The notes below the pieces were generated by a model, which had not been told where the DNA came from, made no database searches, and worked only from the letters and a program-made list of their open reading frames with translations. Of a stretch of 37,462 nucleotides of DNA, positions 7,125-14,199 are shown one piece after another; within the stretch, counting starts at the first letter, position 1; every line of letters begins with the position of its first letter. The position numbers and the translations under genes were made by a program. The DNA is from a virus (lineage: Duplodnaviria; Heunggongvirae; Uroviricota; Caudoviricetes), in IMG/VR virus record IMGVR_UViG_2778261530_000007, one strand, 5' to 3'.

Positions 7125-9947
7125 ATGACGGCAGAGTACATCAGGGACTGGCAACAACCGCGCCACGCAGTGGGGCGTGAAGGAACGGGGATCCCCGCTC
7201 CTGAATCCGCGCTTTCCTCCTGGCTGGATGCCTACCGGGCAGAGAACGAGCGCCGCCAGGAAATGGCTGATGCGGCGTTCTCCGCCACGCCGCTGGGCAA
7301 CCTGATTAATAAAAACCTGGACGCACAGGAAAAACAGGACAAAACCATCACACTGGCAGGAGACGCCAGAAAACAGGCACGCGGCGCGGTGGATGAAGCC
7401 ATGGCCTCGCTGCGCCTGCTGCCGTCCTATCTGCGCGATCCGCTTATTCGCCACCTCTCCTTCCTGCGCAAAAAACAGGAAGCCGATCGCCGGAAAGGCA
7501 AAAAGAGCTGGCAGGCGGAACGCTATGCACGCGGAACCCTGCGCAAAATATTCGAACGTCTGGATCGCACTGACGGACACTGGCTGACACCGGGTTATCG
7601 CTCCCTTGCCGGACGCGAACGCCTGGACGATTTGCTTTACCTGCCGCAGCTCAACAAACACCAGATACAGACGCTGGCCACCATGACGGCGGCGATGTTC
7701 AGCAGCACCTTCGAAAAACTCTGCGATGGCTTTGGCGCGACCGATGGCGAACTGACCATGGATGTAACGCTGAAGGCGTATCAGATGCTGGCCCGCATGG
7801 CGTTACACCTGCACATCATGCCTCCACATTATGACGCACTGACAACAGATAAAGACCGGAGGAACGAACCGGACACGGAGCTGCTGCCGGGCGCAATCCT
7901 TCGCCTGACCTGTGCGGAATGGTGGAAACGCAAACTGTGGCTGTTACGTTGCGAGTGGAGAGAAGAACAACTCCGCGCCGCCTGTCTGGTTTCCAGAAAA
8001 ACATCACCCTATCTGAGCCAGGACGCGTTAAGCGAGTTTCGCGCACAGCGCGAGAAAACACGCGATTTCCTGAAAAGTTTCATGCTGGAAAACGAAGACG
8101 GGTTCACGATTGATCTCGAGACAGTGTATTACGCGGGAGTAAGTAACCCGGTTCACCGTAAGGCAGAAATGATGGCCACCATGAAGGGGCTGGAACTTCT
8201 GGCCGAAGCCCGTGGCGACAAAGCGGTGTTTCTGACTGTCACCTGCCCGTCAAAATACCACGCCACAACAGAGAACGGTCATCCGAATCCCAGATGGAAC
8301 GGGGCCACCATGCGCGACTCCAGCGATTACCTGGTTAACACGTTTTTTGCAGCGGTCCGCAAGAAACTGAACCGCGATGGCCTGCGCTGGTATGGCATCC
8401 GCACGGTGGAGCCTCACCATGACGGCACCGTGCACTGGCATATGATGGTCTTTGCTCATCCGGAAGAAATCGACAGCATTGTGGCCATCACCCGCGATAT
8501 TGCCATTCAGGAAGACCGCCACGAGCTGGGCGATGACATAACTCCGCGTTTTAAGGCGGAGTACGTAGACGGCTCAAAAGGCACACCAACCAGCTATATC
8601 GCGACCTACATCGGAAAAAACCTGGACAGCCGCGCCGTGGATGGCATCGACCCGAAAACGGGCAAGCCACGCGTTGACCACGAAACCGGAAAATCAATGG
8701 CAGAGAGCGTGGAACGCGCCATCGGCTGGGCGCGCCTTCACCGGGTCCGCCAGTTCCAGTTCTTTGGTATCCCCTCCCGTCAGGTGTGGCGTGAACTGCG
8801 TCGCCTTGCCAGCCAGATGGCACGCAACCCGGAAGGCCCGCAACGGCTGAAGGATGACGCAATGGACTCGGTTCTTGCTGCCGCTGATGCCGGATGTTTT
8901 GCCACCTACATAGAGAAACAGGGCGGCGTACTTGTTCCACGCAAAGACTACCTGATTCGCACCGCCTACGACCTCGCAGATGAGCTGAACGATTACGGCG
9001 AACAGAGCGTACAGATTTACGGGATCTGGTCACCACTCATCGGGGAATCCTCCCGTGTGTGCACGCATCCGGATAACTGGAAGCTGGTAAGACGTAAACC
9101 AGAACCGGAAGACAACGCCCACGAAAATGGTTTTGACCTTCAGGGCGGCCCTGCCGCCCCTTGGACTCGTGGCAATAACTGTCCCCGTGTACAGGAAACG
9201 GACAACAACGGGACAGAACAGCCGGAAGAACGGCCAGCACCGTGGCCGCAGCTCCCTGACGGCGTTGAAGTGAACGAATGGATGCGCTCACTGAAACGGC
9301 ACGAACGCCGGGCGCTGATGCGTTCGCTTCGTGACAAACAGGCAAAAAACAGCAGTGATGAAATGCAGAGCTGGACACAGAGCCGCAAACAGCAGCGGCC
9401 TTTGCCTGATAACCACGAATTACTCGCTAAAGAATGGCGGGAGTCTGCTGAATCTCTCGGCCTGCATATCGGTGAACAACAGATGCAGCACCTGTTACGG
9501 GGCGGCAGTCTGTACGTTGACGGCAGCATCATTGCACCGCAGGGATTTGAAATTGTACGCAAACCGGATACCCGCCCGGACAGCCGAATCACGCAGCTCT
9601 GGCAGCGCCTGAGCCGTAATCATGGCGTAAGCAGCACGGAGATCCGCCATAACCCGGTCGCCAGCTATCTGGCACAGCTGGGGGCATCAGACCCTGAAGC
9701 CGCCGCACGCCTGGCATCCACACTTCAGCAGGACCAGAACACCATGAAAACACCCGTTACCGTGCTTTCTGACATGCTGCGCGCCATCCGCGACGCAGAG
9801 CACGCACAGAGAATCAGTGAAACCACTGAACGCGCCAGCCGCAAAGCAGACCTGCTGCGGGGTGGCCTGACCAGTGGAAACAAAAAACAGACAGAAACGG
9901 GACTCACGAATCCCGTAAATGAGCAAAAAACGTGCCGCGATATATGA
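7125..9947 (+). CDS. A: Replication initiation endonuclease (P2 gpA family, rolling-circle nickase); 940 aa with a long C-terminal extension
   Basis: HUH-type metal motif (TVHWHMMVF) and paired-tyrosine active-site motif (YIATYIGKN); position after the early genes. Confidence 0.9.
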   Translation: MTAEYIRDWQQPRHAVGREGTGIPAPESALSSWLDAYRAENERRQEMADAAFSATPLGNLINKNLDAQEKQDKTITLAGDARKQARGAVDEAMASLRLLPSYLRDPLIRHLSFLRKKQEADRRKGKKSWQAERYARGTLRKIFERLDRTDGHWLTPGYRSLAGRERLDDLLYLPQLNKHQIQTLATMTAAMFSSTFEKLCDGFGATDGELTMDVTLKAYQMLARMALHLHIMPPHYDALTTDKDRRNEPDTELLPGAILRLTCAEWWKRKLWLLRCEWREEQLRAACLVSRKTSPYLSQDALSEFRAQREKTRDFLKSFMLENEDGFTIDLETVYYAGVSNPVHRKAEMMATMKGLELLAEARGDKAVFLTVTCPSKYHATTENGHPNPRWNGATMRDSSDYLVNTFFAAVRKKLNRDGLRWYGIRTVEPHHDGTVHWHMMVFAHPEEIDSIVAITRDIAIQEDRHELGDDITPRFKAEYVDGSKGTPTSYIATYIGKNLDSRAVDGIDPKTGKPRVDHETGKSMAESVERAIGWARLHRVRQFQFFGIPSRQVWRELRRLASQMARNPEGPQRLKDDAMDSVLAAADAGCFATYIEKQGGVLVPRKDYLIRTAYDLADELNDYGEQSVQIYGIWSPLIGESSRVCTHPDNWKLVRRKPEPEDNAHENGFDLQGGPAAPWTRGNNCPRVQETDNNGTEQPEERPAPWPQLPDGVEVNEWMRSLKRHERRALMRSLRDKQAKNSSDEMQSWTQSRKQQRPLPDNHELLAKEWRESAESLGLHIGEQQMQHLLRGGSLYVDGSIIAPQGFEIVRKPDTRPDSRITQLWQRLSRNHGVSSTEIRHNPVASYLAQLGASDPEAAARLASTLQQDQNTMKTPVTVLSDMLRAIRDAEHAQRISETTERASRKADLLRGGLTSGNKKQTETGLTNPVNEQKTCRDI

Positions 9948-10023: not shown

Positions 10024-10983
10024 ATGAAAATTTGTATCGACGACGGCTCCACCAACATCAAGCTGGCATGGACTGAGAACGGCGAACGCCGCAACGCCAT
10101 CAGCCCGAACAGCTTCAAGTCGGAATGGTCTGCGCCGTTCGGTGGCACGCAGCCCGCGAACTACATGCTTGATGGCGTGCGCTATGGTTTTGATCCGGTC
10201 AGCGATCGCTTTGTCCAGACGACCGACACGCAATACCAGTACAGCGATGTGAATGTCATTGCCATTCATCACGCGCTGGTCAAATCAGGCATCACGCCAC
10301 AGGAGGTGGATGTGGTTGTCACCCTGCCACTGAGCGAGTATTTCGACACAAACGCACAGCCGGACATAGCCAACATCAACCGCAAAAAAGCGAACGTTAT
10401 GCGCCCGGTGGAGTACCAGAACGGCGAAGCATTCACTATCCGTAACGTGCGGGTTATGCCTGAATCCATTCCGGCTGGCTTTAAGGCACTGGCTGACATG
10501 AGTCCGTTTGAATCCCTGCTGATTGTGGATTTGGGCGGAACCACGCTGGATGTGGCAAAGGTTCAGGGGCAACTGGCAGGTATCAGCCAGGTGTTTTGCG
10601 ATCCACACGTAGGCGTTTCTATGATGGCCGATGCCGTACTGTCGGTGATGGCCACTAACGGTATGCGCACCAGTCACCACATCGCCAATACCATTATCGA
10701 ACATCGCCATGATGAAGCCTGGCTGCGCCAGCACATCCACAATGACGCGCATTACGCCAGCCTGATGGCGGTTATTCGTGAAAAGGAAGAAACACTGAAA
10801 CAACGCGTGATCCGCGCACTGGCGGGTTTTTCGGGTTACGGGCGGGTGATGGTTGTCGGTGGCGGGGCGGAGATTGTGGCACCCGCTATCCGCGAAGCCT
10901 GCGGAGTTAATGCGACTTTCATCGCGGACGGGGTGCCACAGTTTGCTCTGGTTAATGGGCTGTACGCAATGGACAAGGAGTAA
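10024..10983 (+). CDS. parM: ParM/StbA-family actin-like segregation ATPase
   Basis: Strong similarity to plasmid R1 ParM as recalled (ICIDDGSTNIKLAW, ISPNSFK, YQYSDVNV, VMPESIPAG, DLGGTTLDV, GGGAEI, LVNGLY). Confidence 0.88.
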   Translation: MKICIDDGSTNIKLAWTENGERRNAISPNSFKSEWSAPFGGTQPANYMLDGVRYGFDPVSDRFVQTTDTQYQYSDVNVIAIHHALVKSGITPQEVDVVVTLPLSEYFDTNAQPDIANINRKKANVMRPVEYQNGEAFTIRNVRVMPESIPAGFKALADMSPFESLLIVDLGGTTLDVAKVQGQLAGISQVFCDPHVGVSMMADAVLSVMATNGMRTSHHIANTIIEHRHDEAWLRQHIHNDAHYASLMAVIREKEETLKQRVIRALAGFSGYGRVMVVGGGAEIVAPAIREACGVNATFIADGVPQFALVNGLYAMDKE

Positions 10984-10987
10984 ACCA

Positions 10988-11299
10988 ATGACGACACCAA
11001 CCAGACGGATAAGTTTCTATCTGAAGCCCGCCGCCGTCAAGAACGAAGGTGAAGCATGCGCCTGGCTGGACAGCCTTACACCAGAAGCGCGCAAAAGCGG
11101 CCAACGCGTGGCTTTTCTGGCCGGGCTGGCACTTCTGAAAATGAATCCGGCAGAGGCTTACCGACTGGCTGCATGGGCTGATGATGAAGCGTTATCAGTG
11201 ACACAAACCAGGACAGAACGCCCCGCGTCACAGCCAGTATCAACCGCACAGATAACCAGTCAGATGGCCGGAAATATCCGGGCGTTATTTCCCGAATAA
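10988..11299 (+). CDS. parR: ParR-like partition adaptor protein
   Basis: Immediately downstream of parM with AAGGAG RBS; motifs shared with R1 ParR as recalled (RRISFYLKP vs RRTIAFKLNP; FLAGLALL vs LTAGLALY; IRALFPE vs ILRSLFPKE). Confidence 0.7.
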   Translation: MTTPTRRISFYLKPAAVKNEGEACAWLDSLTPEARKSGQRVAFLAGLALLKMNPAEAYRLAAWADDEALSVTQTRTERPASQPVSTAQITSQMAGNIRALFPE

Positions 11300-11304
11300 C
11301 ACAA

Positions 11305-11328
11305 CATCAGGGCGCATCCGCCCTGATG
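11305..11328 (+). terminator. Perfect hairpin (10-bp stem CATCAGGGCG / CGCCCTGATG, 4-nt loop) between parR and the ZBD gene; terminator, attenuator or protein-binding palindrome
   Basis: Inverted repeat read from the sequence. Confidence 0.4.
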
Positions 11329-11362
11329 ACTTTAACCCGGGAACATAAACAAGGGGGACACA

Positions 11363-11698
11363 ATGCAACGCATTGACAGAGAAAAAGCGCAGCGACTGAT
11401 TGAGCGGATGGAAGCGCTGGCGAAAGAAGAAAATGTCAACATCCAAAAAATAGCTGAATGTGGCCAGATAGTTCTTCGTCGTGAAAAAGACCTCAAACAA
11501 CTGATGTCTGGCGAAACCAGCAAAACATGGACTTCAGGTGAGGAGACGATTTATTGCAGCTTCTGCAATAAATCCCAGTACGAAGTCACAAAGGTGATTG
11601 CCGGACCGTCTGTTTACATCTGCAATGAGTGCGTTGATTTGTGCAATGAAGTTATCAGGAGAGAAGTGACAGACCATGAAGAAAAAACGCATGAATGA
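11363..11698 (+). CDS. Small protein with a C-terminal ClpX-type C4 zinc-binding domain (ZBD) and a novel N-terminal helical region; lacks the AAA+ module
   Basis: C-terminus [39 protein letters not shown] closely matches the ClpX N-terminal zinc finger as recalled ([39 protein letters not shown]). Confidence 0.8.
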
Positions 11699-11864
11699 CG
11701 AATTTGACGGCTTTTAATTTTATCGGGGCGCACTGTCGCCCTGCATGGAGAAAAACAATAAAAAAGATGAATAACTGCTCATGTCAGACGCGCTGCGGGC
11801 AAGTCTGGCACCCTGCCCTGTCTCCGCAAAGGCTGTTGTCTTAACACGACAGAGTATGCCAGCA

Positions 11865-12272
11865 TTAAATATAATCTTCTTCGTAGTCGCTGATTAATTC
11901 ATTGCCATAATCAGACAGCAATTTCAAAGCAAAGGTAACTTCCTCAAGGGTAGCTATCCCCATTGCTGAAAACACCGTTAATTTAACCAGCAGCAGGGAG
12001 TTTGAAAGTTCGGAAGAGTTCATCATTAAAAATATTGATGCAGCCTGAAAAGCTGTGCGTTTATTCCCATCATGAAAGGCATGAGCCTTGGCTATACCAA
12101 TCAAATACATAGCAGCCAGAGCATGAATATCATCAACCCCTTCATAGTAGTGTAGTGTCCTGACGCGATTTAAAGCACCTTCAAGTAGCCCGTCATTGGC
12201 ATTTCCGCTCTGGGGTAAAGTTTCAGCATGGATACGTTCTACTTGTTCTTTTGACAAAAACACTATGTCCAT
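11865..12272 (-). CDS. doc: Doc (death-on-curing) Fic-fold toxin
   Basis: Fic/Doc signature HAFHDGNKRTA; start overlaps the stop of the upstream antitoxin gene (TGATG). Confidence 0.85.
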   Translation of the reverse strand: MDIVFLSKEQVERIHAETLPQSGNANDGLLEGALNRVRTLHYYEGVDDIHALAAMYLIGIAKAHAFHDGNKRTAFQAASIFLMMNSSELSNSLLLVKLTVFSAMGIATLEEVTFALKLLSDYGNELISDYEEDYI

Positions 12273-12628
12273 CAGTTATCCTCAAGCTTTTTAATGATAT
12301 CCGCATGTTTTTCTCTTGTACGCTTCATTGCATCTTCAAAAGACAATCCTTTTTTTCTCTGTGCGACAAGAGCTGGATGACGTTTTTCCAGATCTCTCAC
12401 TGCATTTATTAAGAGTGGTTGCTTCATTTTGTTTATTTGATCCCGCAGTTTTTTGGTTTTGCCAAGGACAGCCCGTATTTCAGGACTAAGATCAGAACCA
12501 GCAAGAACAACATCCTTCCCTCCCTGCGCCGTGATAACGACACTGCCACCGGAAGAAAGGTAATCCAGAATTTCACTCAGGTTCTCACGAAATTCATCAT
12601 CAGTTACAGTTTTCATATTCATTTCCAT
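12272..12628 (-). CDS. phd: Putative Phd/YefM-type antitoxin with C-terminal extension, cognate to Doc
   Basis: Upstream of and translationally coupled to doc; N-terminal region resembles the Phd/YefM fold pattern (EFRENLSEILDYLSSGGSVVITAQGGKDVVL). Confidence 0.6.
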   Translation of the reverse strand: MEMNMKTVTDDEFRENLSEILDYLSSGGSVVITAQGGKDVVLAGSDLSPEIRAVLGKTKKLRDQINKMKQPLLINAVRDLEKRHPALVAQRKKGLSFEDAMKRTREKHADIIKKLEDN

Positions 12629-13152: not shown

Positions 13153-14199
13153 TCAGGATGTGGGCTGGGTGTCTAACAGTGCGTAAGGGTTAAAGCGGAT
13201 CACCTCTTCGCCAAGCCAGTCATTGATGTGCTTTATGGCCTCCATGACAGGCATCAGCTCGTTAATTGCGTAAACCCGCGCGGCCTTCTCCACATCGCCA
13301 AACGCACTTTTTTCGCCCGGCATCGCCCCCATCAGTTGCGGCGGAACGCGGTGCGCAGCCAGCACATCATCACGGGATGCCGCCTTAACATTCATGAACT
13401 CATCCTTTGCGGTGATCTGCTGGAACGGCAAAATTTGCACCCCCTCTTTGCCCCCGTTGGGCGCATGGATGAGCACGTTTTTAAACGCACCACCACCACG
13501 CGCACCCTGTAACGTTTCTTTCAGGGAGTCCATGCTTTCGCGGTTTACCTGCGCTGCACCGATGTAGATGATGCACCCGGCGTGGGATCCATTGTCGTAA
13601 TACAGTTTTCTGAACATGTCCGCCGAATGAGACAGGCTGGCCGAGAGTAATGCGCCAAGATATTCCGGCATGCCGTAAATTTCCTGGTTAATGTCCGGAT
13701 TCATCAGGTGGCACACTTTGCCAGGGCGAAACTGAAACGCGTCCTTGCCATCCTGCACATACCACCATGATTCAAGATCGCTTCCGCGTCGCATGTATTT
13801 CGCCAGTGCGTGCCGTAATTTAAGTGGTTCGCCGAGCATATTGCTCCGAAGCTCAAGGAATGCGTTACCGAACACAAACCAGTCCAGCGCCAGCGCCGAG
13901 AAATCCTGCCGGGAAAGCAGCGGGTGCGGGATGTAGCAACCGAGCAATACATTGCGCTTAAAGTAAAGCGCAGACTGATGCCAGGACGTTTGCCGGGCAG
14001 CTCTTGCCAGACCGTACCAGTCCACCGGGGTTTCATACCACCGCCCGTTATCAGCACAGTACATATTGTCCAGCAGGTCATGCCCGGTCAGGCGATAAGG
14101 ACCATCAAATGTGAATGCACTGAGCGATGATTCTTTCCTGAGCGCATCAGCGAGATCAATGCGTGAACTCATGCGCACTTTTTTATTTTTTCTGCTCAT
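13153..14199 (-). CDS. Q: Portal protein (P2 gpQ)
   Basis: Position and length match P2 Q; coupled to the terminase gene (stop/start overlap at 14199). Confidence 0.9.
   Translation of the reverse strand: MSRKNKKVRMSSRIDLADALRKESSLSAFTFDGPYRLTGHDLLDNMYCADNGRWYETPVDWYGLARAARQTSWHQSALYFKRNVLLGCYIPHPLLSRQDFSALALDWFVFGNAFLELRSNMLGEPLKLRHALAKYMRRGSDLESWWYVQDGKDAFQFRPGKVCHLMNPDINQEIYGMPEYLGALLSASLSHSADMFRKLYYDNGSHAGCIIYIGAAQVNRESMDSLKETLQGARGGGAFKNVLIHAPNGGKEGVQILPFQQITAKDEFMNVKAASRDDVLAAHRVPPQLMGAMPGEKSAFGDVEKAARVYAINELMPVMEAIKHINDWLGEEVIRFNPYALLDTQPTS

Follow-up and report, generated by a model that had tools for sequence, protein, structure and literature searches.

ClpXP controls lambda O, MuA, RpoS (via RssB), UmuD/D', LexA fragments and several antitoxins. 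Some phages are known to encode modulators of host AAA+ proteases: T4 PinA and T7 Gp4.5 act on Lon, and lambda CIII acts on FtsH. Another protein of this kind, SPO1 Gp53, acts on ClpCP (PMC6873191). In the zinc-binding domain (ZBD) dimer of ClpX, the residues F16 and I46 line a hydrophobic pocket, as described by the Houry laboratory (PMC7804408). The region of this pocket overlaps the lambda O site, TF, SspB and RssB bind there, and the degradation of lambda O requires the ClpX ZBD (PMC7804408). CmdTAC, a defence system from the gpA-gpQ hotspot of P2, needs the degradation of its antitoxin by ClpXP (bioRxiv 10.1101/2024.02.24.581848). Phages therefore have a motive to tamper with ClpX, because it is antitoxin turnover by ClpXP that drives CmdTAC.

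Here we analysed a gene for a small protein with a ClpX-like ZBD, which is located in a 37,462-nucleotide stretch of viral DNA, hereafter referred to as the window. A P88-like prophage (genus Xuanwuvirus, Peduoviridae, P2-related) is contained in the window essentially in full. The existence of the gene is not new and its domain is a textbook domain. It is labelled 'ClpX C4-type zinc finger protein' by PGAP, it corresponds to phrog_6797, and the same gene is present in P88 as gp19 (97.7% nucleotide identity), where it was mis-named 'carboxylate-amine ligase'. It was also listed in a supplementary table of an earlier study, as detailed below. Our literature searches found neither work on a phage protein with a stand-alone ZBD or on its function, nor a ClpX-directed phage protein that copies a ClpX domain, nor any described precedent for the deployment of free ClpX docking-domain copies by phages.

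A genuine stand-alone ClpX-type ZBD protein

The 111-aa product of the ORF, which starts with an ATG codon, is a genuine stand-alone ClpX-type ZBD protein. Its features and those of the neighbouring genes are listed in Table 1. The original prediction regarded the C-terminal 40 residues as an almost perfect ClpX C4 zinc finger. Indeed, the Pfam family zf-C4_ClpX (PF06689) matches aa 64-99 with an E-value of 3.1e-17 and 62.6 bits (cut-off 27), covering profile positions 2-38 of 39. In a phmmer search against all PDB chains ClpX alone was returned, the best matches being the E. coli ClpX ZBD structures 1OVX and 2DS5 (E ~1e-19). Across the ZBD, 30 of the 39 residues (77%) are shared with E. coli ClpX, which is the measure of 'almost perfect'. 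The spacing of the zinc ligands, C65-x2-C68-x18-C87-x2-C90, is identical to that of C14/C17/C36/C39 in ClpX, and all four cysteines are invariant in the family alignment (11 sequences including E. coli ClpX). The expected alignment of the four ligands with the ClpX ZBD structures was thus confirmed.

Table 1. Positions of the ZBD gene, its parts and its neighbours in the window.
Feature	Position	Strand	Basis or remark
Stand-alone ClpX-ZBD family protein, complete ORF, 111 aa	11363..11698	+	ORF, Pfam, PHROGs
Shine-Dalgarno sequence AAGGGGGA, strong, 4 nt 5' of ATG	11351..11358	+	read from sequence
N-terminal orphan domain, aa 1-50, predicted helical hairpin H6-22/H27-48	11363..11512	+	AF2 model
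Flexible linker, aa 51-62, low pLDDT	11513..11548	+	AF2 model
ClpX-type C4 zinc-binding domain, aa 63-101	11549..11665	+	Pfam, PDB search, alignment, model
Variable C-terminal tail	11666..11695	+	comparison with P88
Hairpin with 10-bp stem between parR and ZBD gene	11305..11328	.	terminator-like for leftward transcription only
GC hairpin, 29 nt 3' of ZBD stop	11727..11742	.	kept with ZBD 3' flank in lineage L100
Replication endonuclease gpA	7125-9947		
parM	10024-10983	+	directly upstream block
parR/StbB	10988-11299	+	gene just before ZBD gene
Doc toxin, Fic/Doc fold, HxFxDGNKR motif	11865..12272	-	convergent neighbour
Long Phd-like antitoxin, 118 aa, near-invariant C-terminal tail ALSFEDAMKRTREKHA.IIK.LEDN	12272..12628	-	
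Portal gpQ, then terminase	13153-14199		

A structural model was built with AF2 on nine family members (mean pLDDT of 79; ZBD pLDDT of 84-90). The predicted ZBD superposes on 2DS5/6/7/8 with rmsd values of 0.6-0.7 A and TM scores (target) of 0.87-0.91. In the same model, helices at positions 6-22 and 27-48 precede a disordered stretch (52-59) that leads to the ZBD. The N-terminal region had been described as helical and about 60 aa long. The model agrees with its helical nature but not with its extent, as it predicts a hairpin of about 50 aa that is followed by a 12-aa tether. Foldseek searches with the whole model gave matches to the ZBD only, the hairpin being too simple to be informative. 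The linker varies among lineages both in length (~12-35 aa) and in sequence, and the C-terminal tail reads …TDHEEKTHE in the window and …TDKKGKNA in P88. A perfect 12-bp inverted repeat lies within the ORF. It was considered as a DNA-level signal and rejected, because synonymous changes break it in close alleles and it is missing in distant lineages. It is probably a codon coincidence.

The view that the protein lacks an AAA+ module proved correct, since full-length ClpX matches the whole window solely via its residues 1-61, and the NCBIfam ClpX models (TIGR00382 / NF003745) gave 49 bits against a cut-off of 371. We also considered whether the ORF might be spurious, or a leftover of a decayed clpX copy. 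Domain similarity would be the one argument for this. However, the window contains no trace of an AAA+ module, which is why the gene cannot be regarded as decayed clpX. Moreover, the gene has its own Shine-Dalgarno sequence and ATG and a distinct, conserved N-terminus, it belongs to a conserved full-length family of two-domain proteins that occurs in three phage types with omega values below 0.5, and host clpX shows no nucleotide similarity to it. We therefore assign a negligible probability to this explanation, in agreement with the original prediction. Likewise, a recent capture from host clpX or gene conversion with it was rejected. By blastn (E 0.01) the ZBD gene was found in 222 genomes and was linked to host clpX in none of them, and the synonymous sites relative to clpX are saturated (pS 0.75-1.0). 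The likeness to ClpX is therefore old and maintained by selection.

The N-domain is known solely as a fusion to a C-terminal ZBD. This follows from family searches that were word-indexed over 5.8 billion proteins and from an exhaustive HMMER search with the N-domain alone over 1.8 billion representatives. The latter yielded just 17 relatives, and each intact one has a C-terminal ZBD; the others are short, truncated or frameshifted fragments and low-complexity matches. The protein matches phrog_6797, a family of unknown function, with an E-value of 1.6e-57 (residues 1-105 on profile positions 5-106 of 107). Against Pfam, the best E-value of the N-domain was no lower than 0.02. A relationship of the N-domain with IraP (hhalign probability 1.5%), with the neighbouring ead/Ea22-like proteins, with P88 gp20 or with any Pfam family was rejected on the basis of the respective comparisons. 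The same is true for the known ClpX adaptors and anti-adaptors of the SspB, RssB and IraP class, to which the non-ZBD part shows no sequence or profile similarity.

Distribution and genomic neighbourhood

The ZBD family is confined to temperate phages. Among the P2-like prophages of Escherichia, Salmonella and their relatives, several lineages carry it, and it is always followed there by the convergent late genes, as the last gene to point rightward. It is also found in P1/D6-like phage-plasmids, in the accessory block downstream of ref, and in SSU5-like phage-plasmids such as pECOH89; the hosts of these phage-plasmids are Enterobacteriaceae. In addition, dozens of unrelated viral contigs encode proteins of 60-180 aa that combine a strongly ClpX-like ZBD with other small regions, so that phages have acquired this domain repeatedly. 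About 4% of the 5,426 complete E. coli genomes searched carry the family, with 129 chromosomal and 105 plasmid places. For comparison, the P88-type portal was found at 1,247 places in these genomes, parMR at 1,455 places and the window-type Phd/Doc pair at 23 places. Of the P88-like prophages, only about 10% have the ZBD gene, which is thus dispensable, optional cargo.

The ZBD gene is accessory cargo in the variable gpA-gpQ hotspot. In P2-like phages this interval is the cos-proximal hotspot (Rousset et al. 2022, PMC9122126), and much of its cargo is anti-phage. The ZBD gene is entered in the supplementary table of that study by its Pfam label only; ClpX is unmentioned in the main text, and there is no sign that the gene was tested there (PMC9122126). 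In the window it is the first gene after parR, and parM-parR and the ZBD gene are probably co-transcribed. Homology to P88 stops at the ZBD stop codon, where the cargo changes, and this stop codon can thus be regarded as a recombination junction with the downstream cargo.

The location of the gene raises the possibility that the ZBD is merely a compact zinc-ribbon dimerisation scaffold with a function unrelated to ClpX, for example in phage exclusion or defence together with a translationally coupled downstream gene, or as an accessory of ParR. This is a credible, albeit rather unlikely, explanation. Apart from the location in a hotspot for anti-phage cargo, it is in line with the overlap between the ZBD stop codon and the start of the downstream gene (ATGA) in P88, P1-like and SSU5-like elements, and with the exchange of ParR and the ZBD protein as a single block in lineage L061 (ParM 99%, ParR 56%, ZBD 35%). 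Furthermore, the Pfam ZBD domain is also found in non-ClpX cellular proteins, such as actinobacterial proteins with a ZBD and an HTH and cyanobacterial sigma factors. However, the gene downstream of the ZBD gene is a different one in every lineage, and no such partner is present in the window. Most ZBD lineages lack ParR, and an obligate partnership with ParR was therefore rejected. A search of PADLOC-DB 2.0 with the ZBD protein returned 0 defence families at E <= 0.01. In lineage L100 a MarR-like gene takes the place of parR. The MarR-like neighbours of L100 and L060 were examined as a common partner and dismissed, as they are not homologous to each other.

On its other side, the ZBD gene is adjoined by a Phd/Doc module, as had been noted in the original prediction; Doc lies 167 nt downstream and is convergent. 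P1 Phd is a ClpXP substrate, and a regulatory link between the two had for this reason been thought plausible. In its fullest form this idea would make the ZBD protein a third component of the toxin-antitoxin (TA) system that governs the timing of Doc release (addiction or abortive infection), either by binding to the antitoxin or by protecting it from ClpX. We consider this quite improbable. It is true that the adjacency recurs in 3-4 diverged lineages. L100 has the same families side by side (ZBD 92%, Phd 64%, Doc 86% identity) next to an unrelated early region, and L060/L007 have them in a divergent arrangement (ZBD 35%, Doc 58%, Phd 29%). In L008, the product of the gene that directly follows the family member combines a degenerate zinc ribbon of the ClpX type with the C-terminal tail of the antitoxin (64% over 25 residues). 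This tail is the most conserved part of 16 antitoxin homologues and, by analogy with P1 Phd, it probably represents the Doc-binding helix. In E. coli, at least 18 of the 23 TA copies abut a ZBD gene, compared to the roughly one in ten P88-like prophages that have the ZBD gene at all.

However, co-occurrence of the two modules is not conserved: most family members have no TA pair nearby, and TA pairs exist without the ZBD gene. No Doc or Phd is encoded within 5 kb of the ZBD gene in P88, D6/P1-like and SSU5-like elements, or in L009-011, L045/46 and L061, which together make up most ZBD lineages. Conversely, the TA pair occupies the same place in seven other P2-like prophages that lack a ZBD gene, and two E. 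coli genomes, one of them that of strain UPEC132, have lost parM'-parR-ZBD but kept an intact Phd/Doc pair. These two natural deletions indicate that the TA pair is viable alone. Accordingly, neither the conserved co-occurrence nor the dependence of the TA pair that would be expected of a third component was found. It should also be noted that the E. coli TA copies are at least 99% identical and thus reflect one acquisition event, and that some adjacency is expected by position alone, since both genes end convergent units within a cargo hotspot. With 3-4 of 10-11 TA lineages having the ZBD gene and a base rate of about 10%, a rough binomial test that is uncorrected for shared ancestry gives p-values of ~0.02-0.07, and this enrichment is suggestive at best. 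Altogether, a functional link to Phd/Doc is weakly supported.

Selection pattern and proposed function

A codon alignment of 43 distinct alleles was used to compare the evolution of the two domains. Between lineages, the N-domain shows 20-58% identity and the ZBD 54-74%. Relative to E. coli ClpX, ZBD identity is 67-87% in each lineage, and the host protein is central in the family. Where dS was measurable, the N-domain had omega values of 0.17-0.37 and the ZBD of 0.13-0.48, which indicates that both domains are functional and under purifying selection. Few positions are free to vary in a zinc ribbon of 40 residues, and part of the ZBD conservation is therefore structural. Nonetheless, a mere dimerisation scaffold would have no need to stay this close to ClpX at its surface and pocket while its partner domain drifts to 20% identity. 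The conservation pattern, with a ZBD near ClpX, a drifting N-domain and a retained pocket, favours an imitation of the ClpX N-domain that may act in trans.

The pocket is retained in the sense that F67 and V97 correspond to the ClpX pocket residues F16 and I46; F67 is invariant in the family alignment, and the position of I46 is occupied by I or V throughout. In ClpX numbering, the invariant set includes Y13, F16, K19, V24, I28, A29, G30, V33, I35, E38, V40, C43, N44 and I47, while L27, Y34, L42 and I46 are replaced conservatively. Consistent surface differences from ClpX are G18N and D37N in the P2-type proteins and P31D/S32N in the P1-type proteins. All hydrophobic positions of the core and of the interface type are retained (Y13, F16, V24, I28, A29, V33, I35, V40 and I47 as invariant residues), which would also be compatible with a poison or adaptor subunit. 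In this case, the phage ZBD would heterodimerise with the N-domains of ClpX in the hexamer and split the native dimers, and the hairpin would serve as a new recruiting module that redirects ClpXP to a target chosen by the phage. The conservative nature of the four replacements, the near-ClpX sequence kept despite saturated synonymous divergence, and the flexible tether with a separate small domain, which resembles adaptor designs, are all consistent with this. However, the ClpX ZBD dimer is very stable, which makes an exchange with pre-formed ClpX doubtful, and the hairpin has neither detectable relatives nor any recognised target. A subunit of this type is therefore unlikely in our view.

In the reading that we tentatively favour, temperate enterobacterial phages carry the ZBD gene as an accessory ('moron-type') gene, and its product would imitate the ClpX docking domain and serve as a competitive trap in trans. 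Judged from sequence comparisons, this is a serious possibility rather than a probability. The C-terminal ZBD is expected to fold, and probably to dimerise, like the ClpX N-domain and would then present a ClpX-type hydrophobic ligand pocket. Without an AAA+ motor, it might act in trans by trapping proteins that must dock on the ClpX N-domain. Candidate clients include adaptors, for example SspB and RssB, UmuD as a delivery factor, and lambda O / MuA-type substrates, and these clients might be stabilised or the substrate choice of ClpXP might shift. Isolated ClpX ZBD binds adaptor tails weakly, in the range of tens of micromolar. For this reason simple titration would need high expression, and for the same reason the hairpin presumably matters. 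Placed on a flexible tether, it could add avidity through higher-order oligomerisation, or provide a second specific contact. Either way, what would otherwise be a weak, generic decoy could become a trap that binds one client tightly, in the manner of an anti-adaptor. On the other hand, the ZBD is C-terminal in the phage protein and the domain order thus the reverse of that in ClpX, which counts against a mimic, as do the consistent surface differences and the dispensability of the gene.

A broader version of this proposal would be that temperate phages of many hosts use free ClpX docking domains, combined with lineage-specific modules, to reprogram ClpXP, either by trapping adaptors and substrates or by invading the N-domain dimers of ClpX. 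In the present prophage the target could possibly include the antitoxin of the adjacent Doc, and thereby the timing of the toxin. We regard this wider scenario as conceivable, albeit somewhat doubtful. Similar stand-alone ZBD genes are scattered in phages of many hosts, and a result obtained with the present protein would thus generalise. The family lends itself to such work, given a protein of just 111 aa, E. coli as host and the established in vitro assays for ClpXP. If the competitive trap proves real, it would provide a compact natural tool to switch off only the adaptor- and N-domain-dependent branch of ClpXP. If the protein turns out to have no effect on ClpX, the ZBD fold would have been reused as a neutral dimerisation module.

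Comparison with known systems

With the cargo of the P2 hotspot, which comprises old, tin and the catalogue of Rousset et al. 2022, the ZBD gene shares the gpA-gpQ locus, and its product has no similarity to known defence proteins. The SecB-like TAC chaperones, exemplified by CmdTAC, resemble it in being small third proteins beside a type II TA system with a C-terminally extended antitoxin, which in CmdTAC is degraded by ClpXP. However, the fold of the ZBD protein is not SecB-like, the local TA pair is viable without the ZBD gene, and the tail of the local antitoxin is more likely a Doc-binding helix.

A functional parallel to the proposed trap may be found in the anti-adaptors IraP, IraM and IraD of E. 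coli. These small proteins interfere with substrate delivery and not with the protease active site, and in this way they protect a ClpXP substrate from degradation, as the ZBD protein is proposed to do. IraP is a small helical protein, like the hairpin of the ZBD protein, but the two are unrelated in sequence (hhalign 1.5%). The Ira proteins also differ in that they bind RssB and lack a ZBD.

The closest structural relative is the ZBD of E. coli ClpX itself (1OVX, 2DS5-2DS8; PF06689), which has the same fold, the same C-x2-C-x18-C-x2-C site, 77% identity over 39 residues and equivalents of F16 and I46. In contrast to ClpX, the phage protein lacks the AAA+ unfoldase and carries the ZBD at its C-terminus, behind an unrelated hairpin and a linker. 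Moreover, its gene is phage-encoded and unrelated to host clpX at the DNA level.

By class, the ZBD protein would be a phage modulator of a host AAA+ protease that is built from a known domain, an assignment that depends on its inferred function. It resembles T4 PinA, T7 Gp4.5, lambda CIII and SPO1 Gp53 in being a small phage accessory protein that is plausibly aimed at a host ATP-dependent protease, whereas none of these four proteins copies a domain of the protease. If the proposed function is correct, the ZBD family would add a ClpX-directed member to this group. In the broader version of the proposal, such proteins would represent the first class of ClpX-directed phage effectors, and the first to be built by mimicking a protease's own domain.

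Block exchange, a possible cargo remnant and deletions

In the otherwise P88-like phage at locus L061, gpA and ParM show 97% and 99% identity, respectively, to their window counterparts, but ParR is only 56% and the zinc-binding-domain (ZBD) protein 35% identical. This indicates that parR and the ZBD gene were swapped jointly as a single block whose breakpoint lies between parM and parR. The product of a short ORF in the window matches the N-terminal part of a hypothetical protein of 174 aa, the gene for which occupies the place of the ZBD gene in a P88-like element on the Salmonella plasmid pS2122_1. The ORF looks like the scar of an older cargo gene that was truncated upon arrival of Phd/Doc. 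Furthermore, natural deletion variants of the window-type prophage are found in Escherichia coli UPEC132 (L012) and strain 300444 (L013). In both, 55 codons of parM are left, parR and the ZBD gene are missing, and the deletion, which comes to within about 20 nt of the Doc stop codon, leaves Phd/Doc intact. These variants are natural controls for testing whether the toxin-antitoxin pair depends on the ZBD gene.

Coordinates of features in the window and in the compared loci (L-numbers).
Feature	Location	Strand	Remarks
Perfect 12-bp inverted repeat, 3-nt spacer	window 11548-11574		GATTTATTGCAG CTT CTGCAATAAATC; within the ZBD ORF
Short ORF	window 11781-11850		MSDALRASLAPCPVSAKAVV…
Phd-like antitoxin	window 12272-12628	-	homologues P0134-P0149
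P88 gp19, ZBD family	L001 4564-4896		named 'carboxylate--amine ligase'
P1-like ZBD-family member	L002 4776-5138		pEc1079_2
S24 family peptidase (HumD/UmuD'-like)	L003 9660-10052		
S24 family peptidase (HumD/UmuD'-like)	L107 6630-7019		
174-aa hypothetical protein	L004 4561-5085		
D6 orf93, ZBD family	L005 3480-3800		named 'carboxylate--amine ligase'
73-aa ORF, divergent ClpX-like zinc ribbon	L006 3501-3722		Klebsiella phage ST846-OXA48phi9.2; unannotated
111-aa protein	L008 628-963	+	directly 3' of a ZBD-family gene
Stretch containing the exchanged parR and ZBD genes	L061 3651-5372		

Variation within the ZBD gene

Exchange has also occurred inside the ZBD itself. In the P1-like family member on pEc1079_2, the first half of the ZBD is of the P88 type, identical at the protein level and 86% identical over 118 nt, while the N-domain and the second half of the ZBD are of the P1 type. 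This mosaic reflects recombination between phage types within the ZBD. Several P88-like alleles, namely the Y85C allele at L020, L035, L038 and L040, carry a fifth or sixth cysteine beside the second zinc knuckle (SVCICNEC). The L019 allele (C94F) has lost a conserved non-ligand cysteine equivalent to C43 of ClpX.

The inverted repeat spans codons I63-S71, which encode the first CxxC, and is partly common to P88-like and some P1-like alleles. As it is disrupted by synonymous changes in other alleles and is absent from distant lineages, it is probably a codon coincidence.

The long Phd-like antitoxins

The window antitoxin exceeds P1 Phd in length by about 45 residues. The last 25 or so residues (ALSFEDAMKRTREKHAEIIKRLEDN) are nearly invariant among the antitoxin and its homologues, and the middle diverges to about 50%. 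The Doc/long-Phd family seems to occur only in P2-like prophages, at their gpA-gpQ hotspot, with hosts in Escherichia, Salmonella, Serratia, Edwardsiella and Klebsiella. The 111-aa protein of L008 combines a degenerate ClpX-like zinc ribbon (CLFCGASRHETKQLIGKGPWFCDEC) with the conserved C-terminal tail of these antitoxins, and may represent an antitoxin that has acquired a ZBD-like domain in place of its Phd DNA-binding domain. Only 12 nt of the contig follow this gene, so that any Doc gene after it would fall outside the contig.

ClpX-like domains in other viruses and a candidate client

Many GenBank and nr entries for the ZBD family bear the wrong name 'carboxylate--amine ligase'; current PGAP uses 'ClpX C4-type zinc finger protein'. 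The 73-aa ORF of the Klebsiella phage, which is lambdoid, lies between cII and the replication-initiator gene, where the deposited record annotates an opposite-strand gene instead. Around 20 unrelated viral contigs from IMG/VR (L070-L090) encode proteins of 60-180 aa with strongly ClpX-like ZBDs, placed either N-terminally with a tail or C-terminally behind unrelated helical regions. Some of these ZBDs share the 'PTVFICDECVELCMDII' signature with two full-length ClpX genes of the same set (L068, L069), which hints at a possible likeness of the small ZBDs to particular ClpX variants.

Lastly, P1-like and SSU5-like phage-plasmids carry an S24 peptidase gene 3-4.5 kb downstream, in an accessory block shared with the ZBD gene. 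Since UmuD/UmuD' is an N-domain-dependent ClpXP client, this HumD/UmuD'-like peptidase is a candidate client for the proposed ZBD decoy.
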